Shown: positions 1,840 to 55,326, numbered from the stretch's first letter. The stretch: DNA of 64,000 bases from Candidatus Woesearchaeota archaeon (GCA_043771635.1 JAYVHA010000019.1:1248-65247); one strand, 5' to 3'. The notes: generated by a model from the sequence alone, not told the origin. Numbers and translations: made by a program.

Positions 1840-2271
1840 ATGACTATCTCCCCCTCGCAAGAAACGGCTGCCGCAACCTCTTTGTTAACAATAGCTGTTG
1901 CGGGATCATCAGAATTCCAAATAGGATTCGAACTCGCAGGCGTTAAACGCTTTTACACAATTGAAAACATGTCACCTGAAGAAGTATTTACTACGTTGCA
2001 GCAAGCGTCTCTAGAACAAAATATAGGAATTATAATAGTGGAAGAAGAGCGACTCACAGGAATTCCAGTAGCGGACCGAATGCTGCTTGAAAACAGCGTC
2101 AAACCAGTTATTGTTACATTACGAAAAGAGCTTGGCGAGAGCGGTATTTTACGAAGACAGATTATTAGAGCAATCGGAATTGATTTACTAGCGCCAAATC
2201 CTCATAGAGGCGGCGCAAGTCACCACACAGACACGCATCAAGAAAATAAATTAAACAAGGGGCAACTGTAA
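1840..2271 (+). CDS. atpF: A1A0 ATP synthase subunit F
   Basis: Small protein (143 aa ORF) with an IAVAG...IIVEE pattern typical of V/A-ATPase F subunits. Its stop overlaps the atpA start. Confidence 0.7.
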   Translation: MTISPSQETAAATSLLTIAVAGSSEFQIGFELAGVKRFYTIENMSPEEVFTTLQQASLEQNIGIIIVEEERLTGIPVADRMLLENSVKPVIVTLRKELGESGILRRQIIRAIGIDLLAPNPHRGGASHHTDTHQENKLNKGQL

Positions 2272-4280
2272 TGGCAACACTAGCAGCAAGTTCAAAAGAA
2301 AAATCGACCGGCACAAAAGATGCCGCAGCTACCCCTGCGTCGCGCAAAAAATTAGTTCAAACTGCAGCGACAGCCTCGGTCGCAGGCGCGAGCGCGAGCG
2401 CCAGCGCAACTGGAAAAAAAACAACTATGGCTACCTCTCAATTAAACACAACCCGTAATTCCACCGTTCGCGTCGAGTCTGTAACTGTTGAGAGCCGAAC
2501 AGCGGCAGGTAACGGCACACTTGTTCGCATTGCAGGGCCCGTAGTTGTAGCAATAGGAATAGTGCCTGCAATGTACGACCTAGTTCGCGTTGGAGACCAA
2601 GGACTTCTTGGCGAAGTAATCCAAGTTCGTGGGGACCGCGCAACCATTCAAGTTTACGAAGACACAACAGGACTGCGGCCTGGCGACCAGGTTGTTCACT
2701 ATGCAGAAAGTCTGTCAGTTGAACTTGGCCCGGGTTTACTCGGCAGCATTTATGATGGCATCCAAAGGCCACTTCCACTGCTTGAAGAACAAAGTGGCGC
2801 ATTCCTTGCACGCGGCGCAACCGCTCCTGCAATCGACCAAGAAAAAAAATGGGCGTTCACGCCAAGCGCTACAGTTGGCACTTTAGTAAAAGCGGGCCAC
2901 AGCATTGGCTTTGTGACAGAAGGTCACACTAAGCACCACATTCTAGTACCGCCAGGCAAAGATGGTGTGATTAAGCAAATTAGCGCAGGACAATATAATG
3001 TTCATGAGCCGGTTGCTACACTTGATAACGGAATAACGCTGCAAATGGCTAACCGCTGGCCGGTGCGAGTGCCGCGCCCAACTGGACGCAAGCTTCCTCC
3101 AAAAACTCCGCTCACAACTGGACAGCGCGTAATCGACGCGCTTTTTCCATTGTCAAAGGGTGGCGCTGCTGCAATCCCAGGACCATTCGGCGCGGGAAAA
3201 ACTGTAAACCAGCAGCAGCTTGCTAAGTGGTCGGACGCAGACATTATTGTGTACATTGGTTGTGGTGAGCGCGGTAACGAGATGACTGAAATTTTAACCG
3301 AATTCCCACATCTCACCGACCCGAAGACAGGCACACCACTAATGGACCGCACTGTACTTATTGCAAACACTTCGAACATGCCTGTGGCTGCGCGAGAAGC
3401 ATCAATCTATACAGGAGTCACGATTGCAGAATACTATCGCGATATGGGTTATGATGTCGCGCTTATGGCGGACTCGACAAGCCGCTGGGCCGAAGCGATG
3501 CGTGAAATTGGCTCTAGACTTGAAGAAATGCCGGGAGAAGAAGGATTCCCAGCTTACCTTGCTACTAGGCTATCGCAGTTTTATGAGCGTGCAGCGCGTG
3601 TTGAAACTGTGTCAGGCCTTAAGGGATCAGTCACAGTTATTGGCGCAGTAAGTCCACCAGGAGGCGACTTCTCAGAACCAGTTACACAGAATACTCTGCG
3701 TGTGACTAAAGCATTTTGGGCACTCGACGCTAAGCTAAGTCAGCGTAGACACTACCCTGCAATCAATTGGCTTACTAGTTACAGTTTGTACCACGACACG
3801 CTTGCGGTTTGGTATGTGCAAAATGTAGCAGAAGACTGGCAGGAGTGCGTAAGAGGACTTACAACAATACTTCAAGAGGAGGAGAAGCTACTGGAAATTG
3901 TGCAGCTTGTCGGCAACGATGCACTACCAGAGCGGCAACAAACAACACTTATGGTCGCGCGAATAATGCGAGAAGGCTTTCTGCAGCAGAACGCGTTCCA
4001 CGAAGTAGACAGCACATGTAGTTTACAAAAATGCTACCGACTAATGAAAGCAATGCTCTACTTCAATAAACTCTCAGTGCGCGCAGTGGACCAAGGCGCA
4101 CGTACAAGCGCCATAGGTAAACTAGCCTGCCGCGAGCAGCTGATTCTAGCAAAGTACGAAAAAGAGGATGAAACGTTTATCGCAAACCTAACTAAACAAA
4201 TGGACGCAGAATTCCTCAGCCTCACAAAGACAAACGCGCCGCTAGGAAGCAGCGCAACCCCAACCAGGAGCACCTCATGA
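2271..4280 (+). CDS. atpA: A1A0 ATP synthase catalytic subunit A. It has a ~75 aa low-complexity Ala/Ser/Thr/Lys-rich N-terminal extension, or the true start is an internal Met near 2427.
   Basis: Walker A GPFGAGKT. Conserved segments [26 protein letters not shown] and the non-homologous region typical of A subunits. 669 aa. Confidence 0.9.
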
Positions 4281-5827
4281 GAGAATACGCAACAGTCAGT
4301 AGAATTGAAGGACCACTCATCTTTGTTGAGCGCACACACCCAGTTGCGTACGGCGAACTTGCACAAATTCGAACACGAGACGGCTTGCGCTTAGGCCAAG
4401 TTCTAGACACAACCGACACACACGTTGTACTGCAGATTTTCGAAGGTACAAGCGGCATTGATCGAACTGCGGGAGTGCGTTTCCTTGGCAAGACAGTACA
4501 GCTCGGCGTAACTGAAGACATGCTTGGACGAGTATTAAATGGAATTGGTAAAGCAATCGACGGCGGACCAGAACCAATTCCAGAAAAGTTTGTTGACGTA
4601 CATGGCAGCGCAATCAATCCGTATAGCCGCAAACAGCCGTTCGAGCCAATTCAAACAGGCATTTCCACAATAGACGCGACTAACAGCCTACTGCGCGGAC
4701 AGAAACTGCCGATCTTTTCGGGTGCAGGCCTTCCACACAATGAATTAGCACTTCAGATTGCGCGTCAGGCAGCTGTTCCTGGTGCAACTGGAAAGTTCGC
4801 TGTAGTATTCGCCGCAATGGGCATCACAAACGAAGAAGCTCAAAAATTTCTTCAGGACTTCGAAGAAACCGGCGCTTTGAGTCGTACTGTGGTATTCCTA
4901 AACTTAGCGAACGACGCAGCGATTGAGCGTCTACTTACTCCGAGAATGGCGCTCACAGCAGCAGAGTATCTGGCGTATGAAAAGGACATGCACGTGCTAG
5001 TTATTCTGACAGACATGACTAACTATTGTGAAAGCCTGCGTGAAATTGCGGCAGCTCGTCAAGAAATTCCGGGACGCCGCGGTTACCCTGGTTACATGTA
5101 CACTGATCTGTCCACCATTTATGAGCGCGCAGGAATTCTAAAAAGTGGACCTGGAAGCGTCACTCAGATTCCAATCTTAACAATGCCGGCGGACGACATA
5201 ACGCACCCCGTACCAGACTTAACAGGCTACATTACCGAAGGACAAATTACACTCTCACGTGAACTACATCGAAAGAGTATTTACCCACCAGTCGACATTC
5301 TACCAAGTTTAAGTCGGCTTATGACCCTTCTCGGTTCTGGCGAAGGCAAAACTCGCGCAGACCACCGCAGCGTCAGCGACCAAGTGTACGCTCTATACGC
5401 GGAAGGCAAAGATTTGAGAGGCCTCGTCGCAATCGTAGGAGAAGAAGCATTAGCGGAGCGCGAGCGTAGCATTCTTCGATTTGCAGCTGCGTTTGAAGAC
5501 CGCTTCGTTCGACAGAGTAAAAGCGAGAACCGCTCATTTGCACAAACCCTGGACCGTGGCTGGCAACTTTTCGGAGGGATAGCAGAGAGTGAACTCACGC
5601 GCCTACCAGGAAAGCTACGTGAGCAATACCGCCATCTAATGCAACCGACATCAGCAGCGGCAGCTACAGCAAATAGTTCTGTGGCTGCGTCAGCTCCTGC
5701 AACGACCTCGAATAGTAGCGCGGCAACGCCTGCCACAACGCCCAAGGGTGCCGCGCACGAACATGCAAAGAAAGAGCATGAAGTGAAGACGCATGAAAAA
5801 ACTGAGGGACAAACTAAGCGTGGCTGA
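4277..5827 (+). CDS. atpB: A1A0 ATP synthase regulatory subunit B with a ~55 aa Ala/Ser/Thr-rich and His/Lys-rich C-terminal extension
   Basis: Strong similarity pattern to V/A-type B subunits ([39 protein letters not shown]). Overlaps the atpA stop (ATGA). Confidence 0.9.
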
Positions 5828-6494: not shown

Positions 6495-6628
6495 TTATTT
6501 AGTAAATTTTCTGTTTACAAATGCAAAATCAATACTTATTAGCTCGTACCGACGGTGCTATTTACTTCTCCGACGGTAAATTCCGAAATGATTATAAACC
6601 CCTCGTCGCAGGAATAGGCTATAACTGT

Positions 6629-6649
6629 GTAGCGACCAAAGGTTGCTAC
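6629..6649 (+). promoter_or_regulatory. Stem-loop (9-bp stem with one G.U pair, AAA loop) 17 nt upstream of the ATG at 6666
   Basis: GTAGCGACC-AAA-GGTTGCTAC as read directly. It is preceded by two direct copies of CCGACGGT at 6549 and 6570. Confidence 0.3.
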
Positions 6650-6665
6650 CGAAGGACATACGGCA

Positions 6666-6983
6666 ATGGCAGAAGTACTAGTAAAGACTGGAATTAAGCG
6701 CGAGTCAGGTTGGCTCTATTTTGTTGACAAGGCAGGCAATGCAGCACGCGTAAAGATGGCACGCAAAGGCGAGAAGACTAACAAGAAACAAGAAGTTCTC
6801 GCTAAAGCAGGCATCAAGCGTGAAAAAGGCTTCCTATACTTTATCGACAAGGCAGGAAACGTAGCACGCGCAAAGATGGCACGTGGCGGCGCAGCTAAGA
6901 AGAAGGCTCCTGCAAAAGCAGCAGCAAAGGCAGTAGTAGCTAAGAAGAAGGCTCCTGCAAAAGCAGCAGCAAAGAAGAAGTAA
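6666..6983 (+). CDS. Small basic protein with two tandem ~38-aa repeats and a Lys/Ala/Pro-rich histone H1-like tail. Candidate nucleoid-associated protein.
   Basis: The two repeats are GIKRE[SK]G[WF]LYF[VI]DKAGN[AV]AR[VA]KMAR. The C-terminal tail is AKKKAPAKAAAKAVVAKKKAPAKAAAKKK. 105 aa, pI clearly very basic. Confidence 0.5.
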   Translation: MAEVLVKTGIKRESGWLYFVDKAGNAARVKMARKGEKTNKKQEVLAKAGIKREKGFLYFIDKAGNVARAKMARGGAAKKKAPAKAAAKAVVAKKKAPAKAAAKKK

Positions 6984-7068
6984 GTTTTAATCAATTCTTT
7001 ATTTTTTTTAATTTTCTAAATCACCTTATAATTTCCGACTTTGATTTGTGAATACATATTAACGCTAA

Positions 7069-8022
7069 TTGATTTTACGTTTTATGCGTCCACGTACTAC
7101 AATAGTAATAGGTATTTGCGCTGTCGTGTTGCTTTGCGCAGCGGCAGAACTGGGAGTAATTATGCATGCTCCGCAGATAGTGCATGAGCAGGGCACGATT
7201 GAGGTAATAATGTGCCCGGAGTGCGAGAATAAATTTTTAACGCTACTCAGAGGCGGAGGCGACATTGAGTGCGCTCTCTATGATTATGGCTCCACGACCG
7301 AACAAGCACTTCGTGCCGCCCGTGCACGCGTAGTAACTGATGATAAAGATGGCGGCTCATACGGCAAACCGATAGAACAGGAGGGTCTCATGCACAATAA
7401 GTTCTGCATAGTTAACAGCTCACTCGTCGTAACCGGCAGCTATAATCCTACGGAGAATGGGGAACTTAATCGAAATAATATGTTAATAATTCTAAGTCCC
7501 ACCCTTGCAAAAAATTATGCGGCGCAGTTTGCTTCAACTGAGAGCGGGCTTATGCGAGCAAGAATTACCCCTATCGTAAATCTGAGCGGCGTTAGAGTTC
7601 AAAATGCGTTTTGCCCGAATGATGATTGTGAAGCGCAGGTAAACCAAGTTCTACTCGGTGCTAAGCGCGAAATAGTCTATATGCAGTTTGCGTTTACTAG
7701 CGAGCGCTTAACTAGAACTCTCGAGAACGCAAAAGCGCGCGGGATTAAAGTTGAAGGTATATGCGACGGAGGCCAGTGGAATACACAAGGCGGGAAATGT
7801 TCACGCTTGCAAGCCCGAAGTTGGGACTTGCCAAACATGATGCACCATAAAGTATTCATTGTAGACGGCAAAACAGTCATTACAGGGTCCTATAATCCGA
7901 CAAACTCAGGGACCTTTCGTAACAGCGAAAACATACTCGTCATTACTGATTCAGCGATAGCGGCCGAGTATAGATTAGAGTATGAAAAGGCACTAATCGA
8001 GAGTACAATTAGACGAAAATAA
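7069..8022 (+). CDS. Secreted phospholipase D-superfamily protein with two HKD motifs (PLD/Nuc-like nuclease or phospholipase)
   Basis: N-terminal hydrophobic signal/anchor (IVIGICAVVLLCAAA). Two HxK motifs, each followed by a GSYNPT segment: HNKFCIVNSSLVVTGSYNPTENG and HHKVFIVDGKTVITGSYNPTNSG. Confidence 0.7.
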   Translation: MILRFMRPRTTIVIGICAVVLLCAAAELGVIMHAPQIVHEQGTIEVIMCPECENKFLTLLRGGGDIECALYDYGSTTEQALRAARARVVTDDKDGGSYGKPIEQEGLMHNKFCIVNSSLVVTGSYNPTENGELNRNNMLIILSPTLAKNYAAQFASTESGLMRARITPIVNLSGVRVQNAFCPNDDCEAQVNQVLLGAKREIVYMQFAFTSERLTRTLENAKARGIKVEGICDGGQWNTQGGKCSRLQARSWDLPNMMHHKVFIVDGKTVITGSYNPTNSGTFRNSENILVITDSAIAAEYRLEYEKALIESTIRRK

Positions 8023-8052: not shown

Positions 8053-8655
8053 ATGCTATACTGGTTAGCGTTATTGTTTACCACTGCAACGTCGATAAAG
8101 TTTATAAAACGCCAAAGGATTGCCGAAGTAAGCAAATTACTGCTACACCCAGACGTTTTCAAAACGCTGTGGAGGTCCCGGATGAGTATCATAGCATTCA
8201 ATTTCACAAAGATATCAGCACACCGTAAAACGCCAGGTAACCTGAAGCACCAAGTGCAGAGTAAAACTGCAGTAACAGAGGTTAAGGAAGTTTCACTCGG
8301 AAAACAAAAGGCACTCTCATTTGTCTTTGCACAGGAAGTTGCATACGAACCAGGCATGGGCACAATTTTACTCGAAGGCGACGTACTAGTCCTATCCACC
8401 GACGAAGAAGCTAAAGCAACTATCGAATCATTCCAAAAGAATAAGCGCTTCGCGGCACCACTAATGGAAAAAGTATACAACCAAATCCTTCAGCGCACAG
8501 GTATTGAAGCACTCATCCTCGCACGCGACATCGGATTGCCACCGCCAGTACAGCTTCCACGTATCACGTCAACACCTAAGGCAGCTGTACAGGAAGCTGC
8601 AGCAGCGCCAGCCGCAAAGGCTGCAATGCCCGACAACAAGGGAAAGAAGAAGTAA
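8053..8655 (+). CDS. Hypothetical protein. The likely true start is an internal Met near 8185.
   Basis: ORF only. C-terminal Ala/Lys-rich tail. No recognisable motif. Immediately upstream of cdc48. Confidence 0.3.
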   Translation: MLYWLALLFTTATSIKFIKRQRIAEVSKLLLHPDVFKTLWRSRMSIIAFNFTKISAHRKTPGNLKHQVQSKTAVTEVKEVSLGKQKALSFVFAQEVAYEPGMGTILLEGDVLVLSTDEEAKATIESFQKNKRFAAPLMEKVYNQILQRTGIEALILARDIGLPPPVQLPRITSTPKAAVQEAAAAPAAKAAMPDNKGKKK

Positions 8656-53073: not shown

Positions 53074-55326
53074 TTAACTGCCTTCTTCTTCTTTACCTTC
53101 GGTTACTGCACGGCTAACTTCAACATATCTGCACTTTGGATAGCTCGAGCAGCCCCAGAATGAACCGTAAAAGCTGTTCCGCTGCGCTAGCGGCTTGTTA
53201 CATTTAGGACACGTCTTTGACGCAGGCTCTTCCGGCTTTGGCTTGCCAGGACAAAGTGGATTTACACAATACTCGCGACTACCAAGCTTTAGTAGCGGAT
53301 ACTGATCATGTGGGCACGTCTTGCCAATTGCACGTAGTAATCCTTTTTGTGGTACACTGAAAGTAGTAGTGCATTTTGGATAGTTTGAGCAACCGACAAA
53401 GCGTCCGAACTTACCCTGTCGCAGTTGTAATGTGCCCCCGCAAATGTCAGGACCTAAGTTTGAGCGCTTGTCTTGCGCCGTTCGCTCCGCATCTTTTAGT
53501 ACAGCGCCAATTTCTTTCTCATGCACTTTGAAATGCGCAAGTACTTTGAGAAGATGCGCTTTCGCATGCGCAAGCACTTCTTCGGGTTTTGCACTGCCTA
53601 AGCGGATACTTTCAATTTCTTCTTCAATGTCGCGCGTAAGTTGTTCGTCAGTTATCTCAGGTACATACTTGTCAAGCGTCCCAATGGTTACTAGACCTAA
53701 CTCGCTCGCCGTAATCGATTGCTCATCCACATAACCACGGTCATATAAGTTCTGTACAATATCAGCGCGCGTTGCTTTCGTGCCGAGCCCACGCTTCTCA
53801 AGTTCTTTGATAATAGACGCAGGAGTATAACGGCGCGGCGGCTGAGTCATTTTCTTTTCAATCCCAACTTCTCCCGGCACTTTTGCACCGATTGTAATCG
53901 TAGGAAGAATTTCTTCTTCCAACTTTACGTGTCGACCATATATAGCGTGCCAACCCGGCTCAATTGTGTGAGTACCTCGCGCAACAAAAGATCCCGCGCC
54001 CTTTGCAATTGTTACTGTTTGTGTTTCACGAATGGCAGGATCACCAAACGTAGCGAGAAATCTTCTCACTATAAGATCGTAGACAGCAGCAGTGCGACCA
54101 ACAAGATTTTTTGGTGCGACGCCAGTTGGGAAAATTGCGGGGTGCGCTGGGTCAGTTTTAGGACCGTTATTCGGTTTCAAATCTTTGCGCTTGCTTAGCA
54201 TTGCGGCAATTTCTTTGTACGCAGGTTGCTTGCTAATTTCTTTGATAATTGCAGGTAAACCTAGTTCAGGCGGGAGAACCTGGCTGCTAGTACGAGGATA
54301 GCTCGTGTAGCCACCAGTGTACAGGTCTTGCGCAACGCGCATAGTTTCCTTAGGGTTTATACGCAAGCTTCGGTACGCTTCAGTTTGCAAGGTAGTCAGG
54401 TCAAACGGAAATGGAGGTGCGGCCGATGTGCGCTTTGCATCTACTGCGCTGACCGCTGCCTGACCTTTGGAAGCTGCTTGATATGCCTCTGCAGTAGCTT
54501 GTGCGTCAAACGGATTCTTGATGCAGGCAGCATCGATTTCTACTGAACCAATTTTAGTTGGAAGCGAGAGTTCCCAGTAAGGCACCGGGATGAACGCCTT
54601 GATTTCTTTTTCCTTCTCTACAATAATTTTTAGTGCAGGGCCTTGCACTCGCCCGCTTGATAAAATCTTAAAACCACCTGTGGTCTTAACGGCGAGTGTA
54701 AGCGCACGACTTAGGTTAATACCATAGTACCAATCAAGTTCGTGACGCGTTTTACCGGCCATTGCTTGACCCCAGTTGATAGTATTTGCCTTTTGGTTAT
54801 AGCTGATTCGAAGTTCGTTTTCTGTAAGTGTACTGTACTTCATTCGGTTTGCGTCAGGCCGTTTACAAGCGAAGGCGAGTACAGTGTATCCAATTACTTC
54901 TCCTTCAATATCATAGTCTGTTGCGATAGTAATAACGCTCGCGTGCTTTGCTAGTTTTTCGATCACACGGATGTAAGCGTCAGCACCACTCTTTTCTAGT
55001 GAGTTCCACTTAATATCAAAAACAGGGTAAGTCCAGCCTTTCTTCTCCTTCTTATCCTCAACGACACCATACAAATGGCCTACTGCGCTCGCGACCACAA
55101 TGTCTTTGTCACCGTGCGTGAGCTCCCACCAAGTAACTTTTCCTTGCATTTGCTTGATGGGTTTACTGTTTGATAGGCTCTCCGCTATCTTCTTTGCGCT
55201 GCTAGGTTTTTCAGTAATAATTAATTCATACTTTCCAGCGGCAGCGCTACGCGCTCCTTCCGTCGCTGCGCTAGGCTTATTAGTTTTCTTTATTACGACT
55301 TTTTTTGCAGCCTTAGCGAGCGCCAT
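53074..55326 (-). CDS. topA: DNA topoisomerase type IA (archaeal TopA / Topo III-like) with C-terminal zinc ribbons
   Basis: Toprim at the N-terminus (ELIITEKPSSAKKIAESL). Type IA core. Three C4 zinc-ribbon motifs (e.g. CPKCNKP...CSSYPKC) at the C-terminus. Confidence 0.9.
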   Translation of the reverse strand: MALAKAAKKVVIKKTNKPSAATEGARSAAAGKYELIITEKPSSAKKIAESLSNSKPIKQMQGKVTWWELTHGDKDIVVASAVGHLYGVVEDKKEKKGWTYPVFDIKWNSLEKSGADAYIRVIEKLAKHASVITIATDYDIEGEVIGYTVLAFACKRPDANRMKYSTLTENELRISYNQKANTINWGQAMAGKTRHELDWYYGINLSRALTLAVKTTGGFKILSSGRVQGPALKIIVEKEKEIKAFIPVPYWELSLPTKIGSVEIDAACIKNPFDAQATAEAYQAASKGQAAVSAVDAKRTSAAPPFPFDLTTLQTEAYRSLRINPKETMRVAQDLYTGGYTSYPRTSSQVLPPELGLPAIIKEISKQPAYKEIAAMLSKRKDLKPNNGPKTDPAHPAIFPTGVAPKNLVGRTAAVYDLIVRRFLATFGDPAIRETQTVTIAKGAGSFVARGTHTIEPGWHAIYGRHVKLEEEILPTITIGAKVPGEVGIEKKMTQPPRRYTPASIIKELEKRGLGTKATRADIVQNLYDRGYVDEQSITASELGLVTIGTLDKYVPEITDEQLTRDIEEEIESIRLGSAKPEEVLAHAKAHLLKVLAHFKVHEKEIGAVLKDAERTAQDKRSNLGPDICGGTLQLRQGKFGRFVGCSNYPKCTTTFSVPQKGLLRAIGKTCPHDQYPLLKLGSREYCVNPLCPGKPKPEEPASKTCPKCNKPLAQRNSFYGSFWGCSSYPKCRYVEVSRAVTEGKEEEGS

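Follow-up and report, generated by a model that had tools for sequence, protein, structure and literature searches.

The DNA-binding surface of the chromatin proteins Sul7d (Sso7d/Sac7d) and Cren7 is a three-stranded sheet that carries aromatic or hydrophobic side chains together with basic ones. These proteins of about 7-8 kDa have stand-alone genes, an all-beta structure and a strongly basic character. CspA is another all-beta protein of ~70 aa, highly conserved and monocistronic, with aromatic and basic residues on neighbouring strands and a D-x-x-G-type turn. Recurrent basic tails are a pattern known from H1, Hc1 and actinobacterial HU, and long Lys/Arg-rich tails are more usual on DNA-condensing proteins. 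To our knowledge, the chromatin of DPANN archaea and of phyla such as Omnitrophota and Marinimicrobia is essentially unstudied.

A 64-kb stretch of DNA from a Candidatus Woesearchaeota archaeon (the window) contains a gene for a 105-aa basic protein, whose 75-aa core resembles Sul7d and Cren7 in size, basicity, predicted all-beta character and stand-alone gene, and resembles CspA in size, predicted all-beta character, conservation, gene arrangement and hairpin motifs. The reading that we tentatively favour is a stand-alone cytoplasmic protein that binds nucleic acids without sequence specificity, likeliest a DNA-architectural (nucleoid-associated) protein with an undescribed fold.

Gene and locus organisation

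The gene, the parts of its product and the flanking elements are positioned in the window as follows.

6549-6556 and 6570-6577, + strand: CCGACGGT in two direct copies at a spacing of 21 nt
6592-6598, + strand: TTATAAA, TATA-box-like
6629-6649, + strand: stem-loop GUAGCGACC-AAA-GGUUGCUAC
6666-6983, + strand: coding sequence of the 105-aa basic protein, from an ATG start to a TAA stop (6981-6983, included)
6672-6770, + strand: repeat unit 1 (aa 3-35)
6792-6890, + strand: repeat unit 2 (aa 43-75)
6891-6980, + strand: Lys/Ala/Pro-rich tail (aa 76-105), AAKKKAPAKAAAKAVVAKKKAPAKAAAKKK
7002-7009, + strand: run of eight T residues, 19 nt past the stop codon

Homologues and dN/dS ratios show that the coding sequence at 6666-6983 is a real gene under strong purifying selection. 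The closest relative (locus L086) encodes a protein of 95% identity and differs by 32.5 synonymous and 5.5 non-synonymous differences, a dN/dS of ~0.02; in other pairs dN/dS is 0.05-0.14, with dS saturated. Two further reading frames were rejected as genes. Alignment of the + strand ORF 6521-6697 to L086 has gaps that are not multiples of three, and the antisense ORF 6716-6994 merely shadows the coding strand, which is of low complexity. The 105-aa protein has a pI of 10.7 (10.4 for the 75-aa core, with 19 Lys and Arg vs. seven Asp and Glu) and is devoid of Cys, His and any N-terminal extension.

Genes for the A-type ATPase subunits E, C, A, B and D lie 5' of the gene, with a spacer of 171 nt after atpD. 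On the 3' side follow a gene for a PLD-like protein, a 200-aa ORF and a gene whose product resembles, by its sequence, a CDC48-type AAA ATPase. The TTATAAA box forms a block conserved with the related loci L086 and L087 in an otherwise diverged spacer and is probably an archaeal promoter element. The T8 run, which has a T7 run as counterpart at the equivalent place in L086 and L087, is probably an archaeal oligo-T terminator. The length of the spacer, the conserved box and the conserved T-run together indicate that the gene appears to be its own transcription unit. In L086 and L087 the flanking genes are on the opposite strand.

Two PLD-like (PLDc_2) stretches occur in the product of the gene directly 3' (7069-8022, + strand), which also seems to have a hydrophobic N-terminal segment; it may be a phospholipase, a Nuc-like nuclease or a cardiolipin synthase. 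Next comes the 200-aa ORF (8053-8655, + strand), followed by the probable gene of the CDC48-type ATPase. Pfam gave no match for this ORF, whose product has a K/A/P-rich C-terminal tail (TPKAAVQEAAAAPAAKAAMPDNKGKKK).

The two CCGACGGT copies just 5' of the TATA-like box are preserved in L086 and L087 despite the divergence of the spacer around them, and they may form an operator for some regulator. As a protein of two tandem units could read direct repeats, the 105-aa protein might itself be a sequence-specific transcription regulator, possibly autoregulatory through short direct repeats such as this pair. This possibility is highly improbable. The CCGACGGT pair is known from the close lineage only. 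The window has no copies beyond these two, and two or more copies occur in 21 of 100 shuffles, so their number is not significant. A spacing of 21 bp is wide for a protein of 75 aa, which moreover has no helix-turn-helix or other known regulator domain. Upstream regions are unrelated among the family members (80 loci), and a near-identical protein across phyla and domains with such unrelated upstream regions argues against a specific operator. The preferred reading remains that of a sequence-non-specific binder.

The initial annotation had placed a stem-loop 17 nt upstream of the start. The stem-loop is present, with nine base pairs including one G-U pair and a loop of AAA, and 16 nt separate its end from the ATG. 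It is significant in a frame of 49 nt (z = -2.6) but not in one of 91 nt (z = -0.74). In L086 the equivalent position is taken by a hairpin whose sequence differs. As a family-wide feature the 5' hairpin was rejected, with a mean z-score of -0.55 over 80 upstream regions, and it is confined to the closest relatives. Most homologues have strong Shine-Dalgarno sequences, e.g. GGAGGTG.

Family distribution and conservation

Searches with the core retrieved 387 proteins of 65-95% identity from Woese-, Aenigm-, Micr-, Nano- and Altiarchaeota, which are mostly 76-82 aa long and, where named, are all "hypothetical". A profile search of 1.84 billion cluster representatives (50% clusters) yielded 1,232 matches at E <= 1e-3 and 416 at E <= 1e-10, and a profile made from bacterial members yielded at least 7,954 clusters at 90% identity. 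More than 522 loci in more than 520 species genomes were found in a scan of the GTDB species genomes. The initial annotation had suggested a survey of the repeat across archaeal MAGs; the family is not archaea-specific, as bacteria account for ~40% of the best 80 GTDB loci (L006-L085).

The bacterial carriers belong to Myxococcota/Deltaproteobacteria, Marinimicrobia/Fidelibacterota, Omnitrophota, Elusimicrobia/Endomicrobia, Bdellovibrionota, Ignavibacteria, Nitrospirae, Spirochaetales and Babeliaceae (Dependentiae); L018, L022, L061, L066, L076 and L083 are examples. Their loci are on genuine bacterial contigs rather than mis-binned DNA, as indicated by an upstream GC content of 63-73% at several of them, by contigs of up to 1.1 Mb that carry some members, and by neighbours that include ORFs whose N-terminal sequences resemble, by eye, glutathione synthetase and class A penicillin-binding protein. 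The bacterial proteins are 50-65% identical to the archaeal protein, which points to inter-domain transfer under very strong constraint. Across the DPANN phyla the identity is 72-79%. The ATPase B subunit encoded in the window reaches no more than 70-72% identity with proteins named Candidatus Woesearchaeota or Nanoarchaeota, a match that assigns the window to a Woesearchaeota-like DPANN archaeon. By this comparison, the small protein is among the most constrained proteins in these genomes.

Some genomes have two paralogous copies, such as one Myxococcota MAG (L022 and L025) and one archaeal MAG (P0061 and P0062). Other copy numbers of the unit also occur: P0418 (108 aa) has three units and P0122 (354 aa), a soluble protein, has several, while in P0121 (886 aa), a membrane protein, at least six units come after a hydrophobic stretch. 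P0135 and P0138 are further multi-repeat or membrane-anchored relatives. The Pfam entry PF27482.1 is precomputed on the three-repeat protein P0418 and on no other family member among those listed.

Fusions to other domains were seen once each, with ParB_N (P0267), ASCH (P0198), zinc ribbons together with GAF and RING (P0173), DoxX, OmpA, nitroreductase, SHOCT and membrane proteins, and some of them may be gene-calling artefacts. Being heterogeneous and of one occurrence each, the fusion partners were rejected as a functional clue. A mobile-element origin was also rejected, as tblastn gave no matches in GenBank phages or PLSDB plasmids. Homologues of 39-53% identity are present on six of 2.9 million IMG/VR contigs (L091-L096), which are predicted to be viral and one of which is 430 kb long.

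A conserved operon partner was likewise rejected. Clustering of the neighbours at ~80 loci showed synteny within clades only and no partner common to all; for example, the gshB-like and class A penicillin-binding protein-like ORFs (N-terminal sequences) adjoin the gene in the high-GC bacterial loci. In L001 and L088 the gene is in a region that also carries mutL and TFIIB, with seryl-tRNA synthetase nearby, and in L002 it is near Trm56 and eIF-1A.

The vicinity of eIF-1A, Trm56 and seryl-tRNA synthetase at these loci fits an alternative in which the protein binds RNA, as a cold-shock-like RNA chaperone or a ribosome or translation factor whose aromatic/basic beta surfaces contact single-stranded RNA or rRNA. 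The cross-domain conservation would suit a target that varies as little as the ribosome or RNA does, and ASCH, with which one member is fused, is a putative RNA-binding domain. However, the 80 loci show no conserved linkage to ribosomal or translation genes, and the patchy phyletic distribution is unlike that of a core ribosomal protein. An RNA binder is thus an unlikely explanation, and the structural comparisons below bear on it further. A binder of DNA is the preferred form of the nucleic-acid-binding reading.

Internal repeats and predicted structure

The initial annotation described a small basic protein with two repeats of 38 aa. The two repeats are clear; their period, however, is 40 aa (120 nt). 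Each unit consists of a strand, a G-I-K-R-E-x-G loop and a beta hairpin (WLYFV-DKAGN-AARVK in unit 1), and unit 2 is identical to unit 1 at 25 of 33 positions. The repeat is also visible in the DNA, over 93 nt with 74% identity and a spacing of 120 nt. The best self-match of 30 aa has 23 identities, compared with a maximum of 12 in shuffled sequences (n = 500). The motif G-I-K-R-E-x-G-[WF]-L-Y-F-[VI]-D-K-A-G-N-[AV]-A-R-x-K-M-A-R is present exactly as it had been written down.

A profile of the core was made from 170 homologues, with positions counted from the Gly that opens G-[YWF]-L-Y-F. The conservation of the main positions in the two halves is as follows.

Position 0, Gly: half 1, 100%; half 2, 100%
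Position +1, aromatic: half 1, 100%; half 2, 100%
Position +2, Leu: half 1, 99%; half 2, 95%
Position +3, Tyr: half 1, 100%; half 2, 100%
Position +9, Gly: half 1, 99%; half 2, 97%
Position +13, Arg: half 1, 89%; half 2, 78%
Position +16, Met: half 1, 95%; half 2, 92%
Position +18, Arg: half 1, 95%; half 2, 86%

Between different proteins of this set of 170, non-corresponding halves have a mean identity (0.56) close to that of corresponding halves (0.58). Together with the matching profiles of the halves, this suggests that the core comprises two functionally equivalent units or surfaces.

The AlphaFold2 model of the core, built with 113 sequences, has a pLDDT of 90.5 and a pTM of 0.75 and shows six strands and no helix. 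The strands comprise residues 3-6, 16-20 and 26-30 in unit 1, with a pLDDT above 90, and residues 42-46, 56-60 and 66-70 in unit 2. The prediction of six strands and no helix agrees with the beta-hairpin character proposed for the repeat in the initial annotation. Strand positions and ordinary hairpin geometry would direct Leu17, Phe19, Ala27, Val29 and Met31 inward and leave Trp16, Tyr18, Val20, Ala26, Arg28 and Lys30 on an exposed aromatic/basic face.

Foldseek comparisons of two AlphaFold2 models with the PDB, and of the first model with BFVD, gave no match with E < 0.5 (best PDB E = 0.66; best query-normalised TM 0.33). The core is thus predicted with confidence as an all-beta structure without a known structural relative. 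A vague resemblance to SH3-like archaeal chromatin proteins had also been proposed, which the comparisons do not bear out, with nothing below E = 0.6 in Foldseek and a best TM of 0.33. Entries for Sul7d, Cren7 or SH3 are absent among the best 50 Foldseek PDB matches listed for both models, none of which has E <= 0.001. Searches of the window by tblastn with Sso7d and Cren7 queries gave no match at E <= 1, and neither family appears in the Pfam scan at E <= 10.

Scans against Pfam, NCBIfam, PHROGs and PADLOC revealed nothing significant for the 105-aa protein. Single-sequence and profile searches of the PDB sequences gave only sub-threshold matches to hairpin repeats, namely LRP6 YWTD blades (E = 0.18), a choline-binding protein (E = 0.34) and DUF5050 (E = 0.12), and a full-text search of the literature found no description of the family. 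The repeat, which could not be assigned before, matched no known family in profile, sequence or structure searches either, and no known non-DNA-binding family turned up in Pfam, NCBIfam, PHROG, PADLOC or the PDB. For a small, basic, beta-rich protein that matches no known family, a candidate nucleic-acid-binding protein stays the best reading.

The sub-threshold matches all belong to hairpin-repeat families, and one repeat of the model superposes weakly on a WW domain (Nedd4L WW3; TM 0.52 normalised to the 37-residue target; E = 5.4). The core shares with WW, choline-binding, YWTD and WG modules a three-stranded antiparallel meander of ~35 aa and an aromatic-Y-F-x-D-x-x-G hairpin. The unit could therefore be a hairpin-repeat module in the style of these families that recognises a non-nucleic-acid ligand or a protein partner, its basicity being incidental, and the multi-repeat or membrane-anchored relatives (P0121, P0122, P0135 and P0138) would fit such a role. 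However, all the matches are far below significance, and the signature of the WW domain, a Trp pair about 20-22 aa apart and a Pro, is absent here, as is a Pfam match. WW, choline-binding and YWTD modules bind peptides or choline or form propellers and are not strongly basic, whereas this core has a pI of 10.4 and Lys/Arg-rich tails were gained independently many times. In addition, signal peptides and transmembrane segments are absent from the two-repeat proteins. Such a ligand module is accordingly a rather remote prospect, and nucleic-acid binding is the preferred function of the core.

The similarity of the core to CspA, with a comparable size, a predicted all-beta fold, a stand-alone gene and aromatic/basic motifs on adjacent strands, is a point in favour of an RNA binder. 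However, the core bears no similarity to the cold-shock domain (CSD) in sequence or structure: Pfam gave no CSD match, no CSD entry stands among the best 50 Foldseek matches listed for both models, and the best match to a ribosomal protein has E = 1.2 (6skf_BG). When the window was searched with CspA by tblastn, the sole result was a chance match of 13 aa at another place.

A zinc ribbon, which has two knuckles with four Cys or His metal ligands in all, was considered because many homologues contain CxCG and NCAC motifs. It was rejected, as the protein of the window is free of Cys and His; the Cys positions of the homologues are variable and interchange with Ala, Val, Thr and Ser. No homologues of histone, Alba, HU, Sul7d, Cren7 or CspA were detected within the 64-kb window, a result that says little, as the window is only one part of the genome.

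The C-terminal tail

The tail is disordered in the full-length AlphaFold2 model (pLDDT < 50). Its 30 residues (aa 76-105) include 12 Lys and no acidic residues, with a pI of 11.0. The DNA of the tail contains an exact direct repeat of 37 nt with a spacing of 45 nt (6893-6929 and 6938-6974), which evidently stems from a recent tandem duplication of 15 codons (45 nt). The tail is shorter in the closest relatives, and in 209 two-repeat proteins its median length is 4 aa, typically RGRKKK. As most members end in only 3-6 basic residues, the long H1-like tail is a lineage-specific add-on and not intrinsic to the family. The tail that the initial annotation took for a classic H1/Hc1-type DNA-binding tail is present at aa 76-105; as evidence for DNA binding it is weakened by the median family tail of 4 aa.

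The low-complexity termini of other proteins in the same genome also make the tail weaker evidence than its appearance suggests: AtpA at the N-terminus, AtpB at the C-terminus, the product of ORF 8053-8655 and topoisomerase I have such extensions, and the lineage seems prone to them. The extension of AtpA (atpA, 2271-4280) is rich in Ser, Thr and Ala. That of AtpB (atpB, 4277-5827) is rich in Ala, Ser, Thr and Lys and missing from close homologues of 454-468 aa. Topoisomerase I (53077-55326, - strand), with Toprim, Topoisom_bac and two Zn_ribbon_Top1 domains, has a K/A-rich N-terminal tail (beginning MALAKAAKKVVIKKTNKPSAA) that is similar in composition to the tail of the 105-aa protein.

Long low-complexity tails rich in Lys and Arg, of 12-83 aa, nevertheless recur in the family, at 26 of the 80 species loci (10 of 46 archaeal and 16 of 34 bacterial). 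Their repeat units, such as KKKAVKRK, KKTTKRK and TARRKPARRK, follow lineage and GC content; low-GC archaea have KKKAxKRK, for example, and Myxococcota of high GC have TARRKPARRK. These differences point to many independent acquisitions. The recurrence of such tails is the strongest argument, though an indirect one, that the core acts on a polyanion. It also counts against an RNA binder, as long Lys/Arg-rich tails are more typical of proteins that condense DNA.

Proposed function

In size, charge and conservation the 105-aa protein agrees with the nucleoid-associated proteins, a functional class of small, basic proteins that are widely conserved within lineages, abundant and of low specificity in DNA binding. 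Its charge and conservation, the equivalent repeats, the confident model, the recurrent tails and the stand-alone gene favour a nucleic-acid binder, as do the single ParB_N and ASCH fusions and the lack of matches to any non-nucleic-acid-binding family in the searches described. The heterogeneity of the fusions, the short tails of most members and the similarities to hairpin repeats that do not act on nucleic acids speak against it. Binding to nucleic acids, a preference for DNA over RNA and a high abundance of the protein are what we infer on balance.

A possible mechanism can be outlined from the predicted fold. The 75-aa core would consist of two three-stranded, WW-like beta meanders that are nearly identical and together form a pseudo-dimer. 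Within each unit, alternate residues of the hairpin G-[YWF]-L-Y-F-[VI]-D-K-x-G-N-x-A-R-x-K-M would point to opposite faces, so that Leu, Phe, Ala, Val and Met form a hydrophobic core between the two sheets while the +1 aromatic residue, the invariant Tyr, an Arg that is nearly invariant and a Lys make up an exposed aromatic/basic surface. The conserved G-[IV]-K-R-E loop would add further positive charge. The two surfaces of a molecule might then contact the nucleic-acid backbone and the groove or bases in the manner of the beta-sheets of Sul7d/Cren7 or cold-shock proteins, and in this lineage the disordered 30-aa K/A/P tail would contribute H1-like electrostatic binding.

A more far-reaching and doubtful proposal is that the family is a major chromatin protein that has so far been overlooked, that its pseudo-dimer of WW-like beta meanders is a new fold for binding DNA, and that horizontal transfer has spread it among DPANN archaea and several phyla of bacteria, namely Omnitrophota, Elusimicrobia, Marinimicrobia, Myxococcota, Bdellovibrionota and Dependentiae. 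Many of these phyla are small-celled, episymbiotic or predatory.

If the tentatively favoured nucleic-acid-binding function is right, the family represents a new and very common structural class of small nucleic-acid-binding protein. The 75-aa core, conserved beyond AtpB, is a concrete and easily expressed candidate. Even without DNA binding, the family is a large orphan group under strong constraint whose fold is predicted with confidence, and it merits a family definition.

Comparison with known systems

The tail of the 105-aa protein matches the tails of the H1 C-terminal domain, Hc1, actinobacterial HU and AlgP in composition, being disordered, rich in Lys, Ala and Pro and containing AKKKAPAKAAAK twice. 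This likeness is compositional only, is limited to aa 76-105 and carries no evidence of homology; the conserved core is unrelated. Pfam and NCBIfam gave no match to linker-histone or Hc1 domains, and the model, having no helices, has no H1 winged-helix domain.

The comparison with CspA extends to the hairpin motifs but not to the architecture. CspA is a five-stranded OB-like barrel with the RNP1/RNP2 motifs of the cold-shock domain and is acidic to neutral, whereas the core described here is predicted to have six strands in two repeats and has a pI of 10.4.

Sul7d and Cren7 provide the best functional analogy, and one that would be functional at best. They are five-stranded SH3-like barrels from Crenarchaeota, whereas the present core is modelled as a tandem duplication of a three-stranded unit (2 x 3 strands) and its family occurs in DPANN archaea and several bacterial phyla. 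Should the chromatin-protein proposal prove true, the family would rank with Alba, HU and the recently found bacterial histones as a nucleoid protein that spans both domains.
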